DNA letters: not shown here
Text below: a report on this DNA, generated by a model with database tools, continued
Origin: Desulfocapsa sulfexigens DSM 10523
GTDB taxonomy: Bacteria > Desulfobacterota > Desulfobulbia > Desulfobulbales > Desulfocapsaceae
Length of the DNA stretch: 32,000 bases
Direction of reading: 5' to 3'
Assembly: GCF_000341395.1 (NCBI RefSeq)
Contig: NC_020304.1
Span: forward strand, 150,001-182,000

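Follow-up and report, generated by a model that had tools for sequence, protein, structure and literature searches.

What is this gene cluster, and what might it make? The genes in and just beyond the window form a single biosynthetic gene cluster of about 34 kb, two genes of which lie to the left of the window, and it is of a kind that has been on record since 2009, product-less and uncharacterised. We argue that it combines an old chemistry with a less familiar one: a chain of the aryl-polyene (APE) type would be remodelled by radical SAM (rSAM) enzymes and then anchored to an envelope lipid. What we show directly is gene content, homology to Ape proteins, co-conservation of the genes and intact catalytic motifs. 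We lean towards the general picture, if only somewhat; we hold to any single reaction within it much less firmly.

The gene map, drawn from an ORF listing, translation and profile searches (Pfam, NCBIfam) of the window, resolves into three operons, A, B and C (see the table). An inventory made by a sequence-only reading proved correct for the genes that it listed; it had passed over a protein in which Dak2, FakA_M and DegV domains are fused (FakA-DegV), the sensor kinases and a small membrane protein. Four of the window proteins are identical to GenBank AGF76706, AGF76714, AGF76728 and AGF76731 of Desulfocapsa sulfexigens DSM 10523, from the published chromosome CP003985. At the left edge only 40 codons of the CrtI/CrtD-like flavoenzyme fall inside the window; in a near-identical contig the enzyme has a full length of 495 aa and is followed by a 182-aa PEMT/ICMT-like methyltransferase and then by unrelated sensor kinases. 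At the right edge, a partial small membrane protein is followed, outside the window, by a GT25-like gene.

Features of the cluster, in operon order, with E. coli Ape counterparts and occurrence in related loci (present/evaluable; T, loci anchored on the TIGR04072 rSAM; M, metagenome loci, upstream of B12rSAM_a)
Feature	Operon	Strand	Position	Ape counterpart	Occurrence
Operon A	A	-	4966 to 1 and beyond		
ACP1	A	-		ApeF, 26% identity	38/39 (M)
KS1, ApeR-like ketosynthase	A	-		ApeR, 40% identity	40/42 (M)
PlsC-like acyltransferase	A	-		ApeD, 23% identity	57/59 (M)
B12rSAM_a, cobalamin-type rSAM	A	-	1182-2696		
SPASM rSAM	A	-	132-1166		
CrtI/CrtD-like flavoenzyme	A	-			
PAS kinase			5202-6308		
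Operon B	B	-	15091 to 6326		
ApeP-like hotdog	B	-	14534	ApeP, 30% identity; reciprocal best match, E 1e-9	39/59, hotdog and KR (T)
KR, FabG-type ketoreductase	B	-		ApeQ, 43% identity	39/59, hotdog and KR (T)
LolA-like carrier	B	-		ApeL, profile E 7e-13	
Lipoprotein	B	-			
B12rSAM_b, cobalamin-type rSAM	B	-	11244-12506		31/49 (T)
ANL ligase, ApeH-like	B	-		ApeH, 27% identity	19/48, missing from 29/48 (T)
FakA-DegV (Dak2+FakA_M+DegV fusion)	B	-			21/25 (M)
GT2 glycosyltransferase	B	-		ApeJ, one half (split), 36% identity	25/32 (M)
LpxL-like acyltransferase	B	-		ApeJ, other half (split), 23% identity	26/34 (M)
DUF4070 rSAM		+	15701-17245		
Hybrid sensor kinase			17584-20940		
Operon C	C	+	21171-31772		
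ACP2	C	+		ApeE, 41% identity	63/64 (T)
KS-CLF fusion (ketosynthase, chain-length factor)	C	+	21591-23726	ApeO, KS (N-terminal) half, 35-42% identity; ApeC, residues 432-562, 29% identity	52/66 (T)
TIGR04072 rSAM, cobalamin-type	C	+	23723-25066		
ApeI-DH, ApeI-like hotdog	C	+	25177	ApeI, 37% identity; reciprocal best match, E 5e-9	67/74 (T)
ACP3	C	+			64/71 (T)
CC1, rSAM with Cys-rich tail	C	+	25821-26888		58/65 (T)
CC2, rSAM with Cys-rich tail	C	+	26885-27892		57/64 (T)
KS3, FabF-like	C	+			50/56 (T)
KS4, FabF-like	C	+			45/55 (T)
TE, thioesterase	C	+		ApeK, 31% identity	44/55 (T)
PS-DH, double-hotdog dehydratase	C	+			42/52 (T)

The CX3CX2C motif is present in all seven rSAMs; CC1 and CC2, which are paralogues of SPASM/twitch-like type, have in addition a tail of the form CC-x(5-6)-C-x2-C. 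Cys-His-His is intact in four KS domains; in the fusion, the C-terminal (CLF) half has neither the Cys nor the second His. The B12-type rSAMs fall far under the cutoffs of all characterised families; the exception is TIGR04072, itself without a defined function, which the operon C enzyme matches over its full length (residues 2-447 on model positions 1-443; 396.8 bits against a cutoff of 360). Riboswitches, cobalamin riboswitches included, were looked for in the window with Rfam, and none turned up. For CC1 we tried a predicted structure (AF2; pLDDT 76, pTM 0.80, the Cys-rich tail unmodelled), and its Foldseek matches in the PDB were generic SPASM/twitch proteins only (SkfB, BlsE, anSME, viperin and MoaA, at TM 0.4-0.5); a Tes/GDGT-MAS-like or other lipid enzyme was absent among them, the matches gave no hint of a substrate, and we dropped that lead.

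Profile searches found no enoyl reductase (ER), FabD or PPTase domain in any window protein, just as the sequence-only reading had held, and no FabH, FabI or acc genes. KS3 and KS4 score 336 and 365 bits on the FabF model TIGR03150, which has a cutoff of 493.75, so that the usual marks of a housekeeping fab operon (FabD, FabH, FabI/K and a FabF above the equivalog cutoff) are lacking. Nor does the window encode a multidomain, PfaA-like KS-AT-ACPn-KR protein of the Pfa type; single KS domains reach 47-68 bits on TIGR02813, for which the cutoff is 1010.

How faithfully do these genes travel together? The TIGR04072 rSAM, aligned with diverse relatives, served as a first anchor in a scan of one genome per GTDB species. 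Relatives are encoded in more than 589 stretches (species genomes), and our synteny set is the best 80 of these loci (53-77% identity), whose sources are Desulfobulbales, Desulfobacterales, Syntrophales/Smithella, Spirochaetota and Leptospirales MAGs, one gammaproteobacterial MAG and Allochromatium palmeri DSM 15591. Gene presence was scored by tblastn of every window protein against the 80 loci, counting for each gene the loci long enough to judge. One order recurs, with GT2, FakA-DegV, ligase, B12rSAM_b, lipoprotein, LolA, KR and hotdog on one strand and ACP2, KS-CLF, TIGR04072 rSAM, ApeI-DH, ACP3, CC1, CC2, KS3, KS4, TE and PS-DH on the divergent strand; the divergent ApeP-ApeQ-LolA-lipoprotein-B12rSAM_b operon adjoins in about two-thirds of the loci. 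Joint conservation of the rSAM genes with KS, ACP and DH genes, which the sequence-only reading had set as a test, holds strongly. Median identities of CC2 (80%), B12rSAM_b (79%) and ACP3 (77%) exceed those of the KSs (67-72%) and of the anchor itself (57%), in loci whose GC content runs from 37 to 65%. We read these figures as the mark of strong purifying selection on the cluster, and of strong constraint on its rSAMs, in dozens of species-representative genomes that include pure-culture strains.

The second anchor, B12rSAM_a, gave 80 loci in a scan of metagenome contigs. There, operon A is tied to operons B and C in three layouts. It may run collinear with operon B, which is the layout of the window; join directly onto the genes from ApeI-DH to PS-DH; or stand back-to-back with B12rSAM_b. 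A linkage kept through repeated rearrangement is strong evidence for one pathway. The seven rSAMs, which the sequence-only reading had treated as one set, are not equal members of it. The SPASM enzyme lies 3' of B12rSAM_a in 29 of 59 loci, and the DUF4070 rSAM and both kinases are missing from the equivalent gaps in other loci, the DUF4070 gene turning up at other positions in only two. We therefore count five core rSAMs, one frequent accessory (SPASM) and one sporadic (DUF4070).

Clustering the unassigned ORFs of related loci brought out further companions. An RND/MMPL/HpnN-like transporter, likely the ApeM counterpart, comes after PS-DH in about 22 related loci, and a GT25-like protein recurs in 17. 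A small membrane protein accounts for 23 ORFs, and 13 loci have a polysaccharide deacetylase, which in one case is fused to a UbiE-like methyltransferase. The acyl-phosphate-dependent PlsY lies 3' of the cluster in 10 loci; 10 loci have a flavin reductase-rubredoxin and seven a FabA-like protein. The family is a widespread, uncharacterised one in anaerobic bacteria.

It is against these data that one might ask whether there is a pathway here at all or just a housekeeping or duplicate fab operon lying by chance beside unrelated rSAM genes. KS3 and KS4 do have canonical FabFs as their nearest relatives in the PDB, and KR lies above the cutoff of one FabG model. However, the rSAM genes are interleaved with those for ACP, KS and DH, their linkage survives in all three layouts and across phyla, FabD, FabH, FabI and acc genes are missing from the window, and neither KS3 nor KS4 attains the FabF equivalog cutoff. 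Contradicted as it is by the synteny, a chance neighborhood has a probability close to nil.

For the scaffold, we compared the window in both directions with apeA-R of E. coli CFT073 (c1186-c1204; gene roles from PMC8253772). Thirteen of the 18 Ape proteins (C, D, E, F, H, I, J, K, L, O, P, Q and R) have a one-to-one best match in the window, at 23-43% identity, and the parts recovered by homology are the KS/CLF pair, an ApeR-type KS, the KR, a dehydratase pair without an ER, ACPs, ligase, TE and anchoring enzymes. Curated models (LolA2_flexi, FlxB, PRK09116, PRK09184 and PRK09185, from NCBIfam) and structures (6qsr for ApeI/ApeP, 6qsp for the APE KS-CLF) support the pairing; in Pfam, the operon C hotdog lies above the ApeI-like cutoff, and the ApeP-like model gives just 14 bits where 27 would be needed. 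Judged by these sequence comparisons, the scaffold is homologous to the APE/flexirubin type II PKS-like system. The sequence-only reading had recognised this architecture and had added that canonical APE clusters carry no rSAM, which is true of the E. coli cluster.

Five Ape proteins (ApeA, ApeB, ApeG, ApeM and ApeN) found no counterpart in the window in the two-way comparison. The lipoprotein had been called DUF3261-type, a label that our searches do not support: it has no Pfam match even at E<=10, a 57-sequence profile gives E ~1, and hhalign puts the probability of a match with E. coli ApeN at 2%. A remote relationship may still exist. Its gene occupies the position equivalent to that of ApeN. 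Of the APE export set, LolA stands, and an RND/MMPL exporter of the ApeM kind is missing from the window and its immediate flanks, the next gene to the right, in the locus L084, being dissimilar to the RND gene of related loci. Given a window without homologues of ApeN (DUF3261), ApeM, ApeB and ApeG, we call outer-membrane export in D. sulfexigens putative.

Is the product, then, a true aryl polyene or flexirubin-type pigment, begun on an aromatic starter by the ApeH-like ligase and merely decorated by the rSAMs, for example by C-methylation of the ring or polyene? The 13 Ape counterparts would suit such a pigment, as would FlxB as best match for KR and LolA2_flexi for LolA, and the best curated matches of the ligase are aromatic-acid ligases (4-coumarate-CoA ligase at 1e-25, benzoate-CoA ligase and the 4-HBA-AMP ligase FadD22), all of them far under cutoff. 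Yet most related loci are without the ligase while keeping the rSAM/KS3/KS4 block; the window has no ApeB methyltransferase, ammonia-lyase, chorismate lyase or halogenase; and the non-APE block (ACP3, two FabFs, PS-DH and five rSAMs) is larger and better conserved than decoration needs. A pigment strikes us as unlikely, and because the window holds no ApeB homologue and no lyase or halogenase domain for an aryl head group, we file the cluster as APE-related rather than as APE proper.

The sequence-only reading had also likened the cluster to the gene sets proposed for anammox ladderanes, a likeness that proves to be distant. Anammox Cluster I, the putative ladderane cluster (Kuenenia kuste3603-3608), comprises amxACP, amxFabZ, amxFabF2, amxFabFmut, PDH and a B12-rSAM. 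Its amxFabF2 and amxFabFmut form a KS/CLF heterodimer (bioRxiv 10.64898/2026.05.19.726425), for which priming by decarboxylation of malonyl-ACP has been shown. The best PDB relative of the KS half of our fusion is 9s5h_B; used as a query, 9s5h_B finds proteins of Brocadia, Jettenia, Kuenenia and Scalindua, and we therefore take it to be the amxFabF2 of that recent preprint. A natural KS-CLF fusion is independent support for the reported heterodimer.

The Kuenenia and Scalindua loci carry Cluster I as published (ACP, FabZ, FabF2, FabFmut, PDH, B12-rSAM). All six domain types occur in the window as well, scattered over three operons instead of collinear, at 22-32% identity and in another order. 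KS1, the KS domain of the fusion, its CLF half and the ApeI-like dehydratase are closer to E. coli Ape than to the anammox proteins; amxFabZ matches the Pfam ApeI-like and ApeP-like families. The Cluster I rSAM is nearest to B12rSAM_b (28-30%) and the DUF4070 rSAM. We considered the TIGR04072 member as its orthologue and rejected the idea at 21-22% identity and 85-87 bits on a model with a cutoff of 360. The short name of the model, rSAM_ladder_B12, is at odds with this, the anammox Cluster I rSAM lying outside the family. In the two anammox loci (±10 kb), no LolA, GT, LPLAT, TE or CC-type rSAM was found next to Cluster I. The low identity, the other order and the different rSAM tell us that these are distant paralogous modules and not the same cluster.

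What of ladderanes themselves, or ladderane-like cyclobutane lipids, as the product? The six shared domain types and the amxFabF2 match would invite the thought, and antiSMASH does attach a "ladderane" label to clusters of unknown function in Desulfobacterota and other non-anammox phyla (PMC9902471). But the identities, gene order and TIGR04072 scores all separate the two clusters, the four scaffold proteins just named side with E. coli Ape, and ladderanes are known only from anammox bacteria (PMC13459092; bioRxiv 10.64898/2026.05.19.726425), with none found in Desulfotalea psychrophila (PMC2649909). We regard a ladderane product as very improbable.

Desulfotalea matters here since the sequence-only reading had, correctly, placed look-alike clusters in Desulfotalea-type Deltaproteobacteria: Rattray 2009 (PMC2649909) reported "striking synteny" between FASII-like clusters of Kuenenia and D. 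psychrophila and similar clusters in Geobacter and Pelobacter. In our search of the literature for a characterised product, we found no paper assigning one, only Rattray 2009, anammox structural papers and genome-mining surveys; we found none linking these clusters to the aryl-polyene system, and in the genome paper of D. sulfexigens the cluster goes unmentioned. The 2009 paper did propose a function, an anaerobic PUFA route, and extended to our cluster the proposal would have the CrtI-like enzyme and the rSAMs act as oxygen-independent desaturases, with head-to-head condensation then giving C31:8/C31:9 hydrocarbons. The syntenic clusters are present in D. psychrophila, Pfa-type synthases are missing from it by the authors' account, and its reported lipids are just ordinary fatty acids together with C31:8/C31:9 hydrocarbons at 5% of total lipid, in an analysis that covered saponified core lipids only (PMC2649909); such a lipid profile counts against our own preferred reading. 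The window, for its part, combines a CrtD/CrtI-like flavoenzyme with the lack of an ER and negligible PfaA matches. This route, however, leaves the conserved LolA, lipoprotein, GT2, LpxL, PlsC, RND and FakA-DegV genes unexplained and gives no reason for five different rSAMs. In no locus that we examined are there ole genes in or beside the cluster, and many of the taxa in which the family is found have no record of such hydrocarbons. The isotope argument of the paper is indirect, and the reviewers of that paper themselves judged its reasoning weak (PMC2649909). We doubt that hydrocarbons are the answer.

We return, then, to an APE-type chain rebuilt by radical chemistry. A dedicated ACP would be primed by the ApeH-like adenylating enzyme and/or by KS-CLF (where the ligase is missing, possibly by decarboxylation of malonyl-ACP, as in the anammox heterodimer), and elongation without an ER, by KS-CLF, KS1, the ApeQ-like KR and the ApeI/ApeP-like dehydratase pair, would yield an ACP-bound polyunsaturated chain; a housekeeping ER acting in trans may instead give a saturated one. 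The non-APE block (ACP3, KS3, KS4, PS-DH, three cobalamin-type rSAMs, CC1/CC2 and the CrtI-like flavoenzyme) most likely serves chain extension and radical remodelling, the first four proteins extending the chain and the three class-B (cobalamin) rSAMs, CC1/CC2 and the CrtI-like enzyme remodelling it. Candidate chemistries for the rSAMs are C-methylation and, at olefinic or unactivated carbons, the formation of C-C bonds or saturation; if characterised class-B enzymes are a guide, methylation at carbon or the making of a C-C bond would be most likely. Precedent is scarce, in that a 2026 review of rSAM enzymes on fatty-acyl (non-isoprenoid) lipids lists only the Jaw5 cyclopropanase and hypothetical ladderane enzymes, and by the same review ladderane rSAM chemistry is still hypothetical (PMC13459092).

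The ApeK-like TE would release the finished acid, which FakA-DegV would bind and phosphorylate to an acyl-phosphate, a step supported by the recurrence of PlsY and by the conservation of FakA-DegV itself. The PlsC-like and LpxL-like acyltransferases and GT2 could then attach the chain to a glycerolipid or glycolipid anchor, and the LolA-like carrier and the lipoprotein (with the RND transporter in related genomes) could hand it over to the outer membrane. What the substrate is, that the chain is a polyene, what each rSAM does to it, that an acyl-phosphate is made, which lipid serves as anchor and that the product ends up in the outer membrane we infer from the genes and their relatives. The interpretation that had been offered from sequence was largely right, and what we have amended in it is the division into core and accessory rSAMs, the label of the lipoprotein, the missing exporter, the overlooked FakA-DegV and the distance to the anammox cluster. 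More tentatively, the product could be an undescribed class of envelope lipid, its polyene-type chain rebuilt by five co-evolving rSAMs so as to be methyl-branched, cyclised or cross-linked.

Why should this matter? Ladderane biosynthesis is hard to study because anammox bacteria are not genetically manipulable and the anammox rSAM could not be produced heterologously (PMC10139942). Here a related, larger gene set sits in pure-culture strains, on an APE scaffold of known enzymology, and those two circumstances make three questions experimentally approachable: what do "ladderane-like" clusters make in non-anammox bacteria, how do these rSAM enzymes act on an acyl chain, and is there an unrecognised envelope lipid or biomarker in anaerobic sulfur-cycle bacteria, cable bacteria among them? 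For such clusters, the antiSMASH label "ladderane" is misleading. If an undescribed lipid is indeed the product, the anammox "ladderane" genes would be a specialised offshoot of a broader APE-plus-rSAM family, and cultivable carriers such as D. sulfexigens, Desulfogranum mediterraneum DSM 13871, Desulfobulbus rhabdoformis DSM 8777 and Allochromatium palmeri might become the first tractable models of a radical chemistry on which work on ladderanes has been stuck for two decades. An old open question has been made testable in cultivable bacteria.

Among known systems, the Desulfotalea loci (the DP1853-DP1860 region) belong to a host of the same bacterial family as D. sulfexigens. By their published description, they are syntenic with Kuenenia and resemble our cluster in having a number of SAM radical enzymes, genes of the phytoene-dehydrogenase type, more than one FabF paralogue, a CoA-ligase-like gene and a glycosyltransferase; D. 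psychrophila is not among the 80 loci. The description also has an Mmp-like membrane protein, which is missing from the window. Rattray 2009 (PMC2649909) drew no link to aryl-polyene clusters, which were defined later. In anammox Cluster I, KS and CLF are separate chains, whereas in the window both halves are one polypeptide, and TIGR04072, the "lipid biosynthesis B12-binding/radical SAM protein" family, has never had its reaction experimentally defined. With the E. coli APE cluster, whose related systems are those for flexirubin and xanthomonadin, the window shares a type II, ER-less KS/CLF-KR-DH set working on dedicated ACPs, a thioesterase, an adenylating enzyme, an LPLAT, a GT/acyltransferase and a LolA-like carrier; PPTase and FabD are absent from both (for E. 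coli, PMC8253772). ApeO and ApeC are separate in E. coli and fused here, and ApeJ is one gene there and split here; an aryl starter is not in evidence in the window. The hosts of window-type clusters are strict anaerobes. Beyond what the E. coli cluster has, the window encodes seven rSAMs, five of them conserved and two accessory, together with FakA-DegV, the CrtI-like flavoenzyme, an ACP more, the FabF-like pair KS3 and KS4, and a double-hotdog DH.

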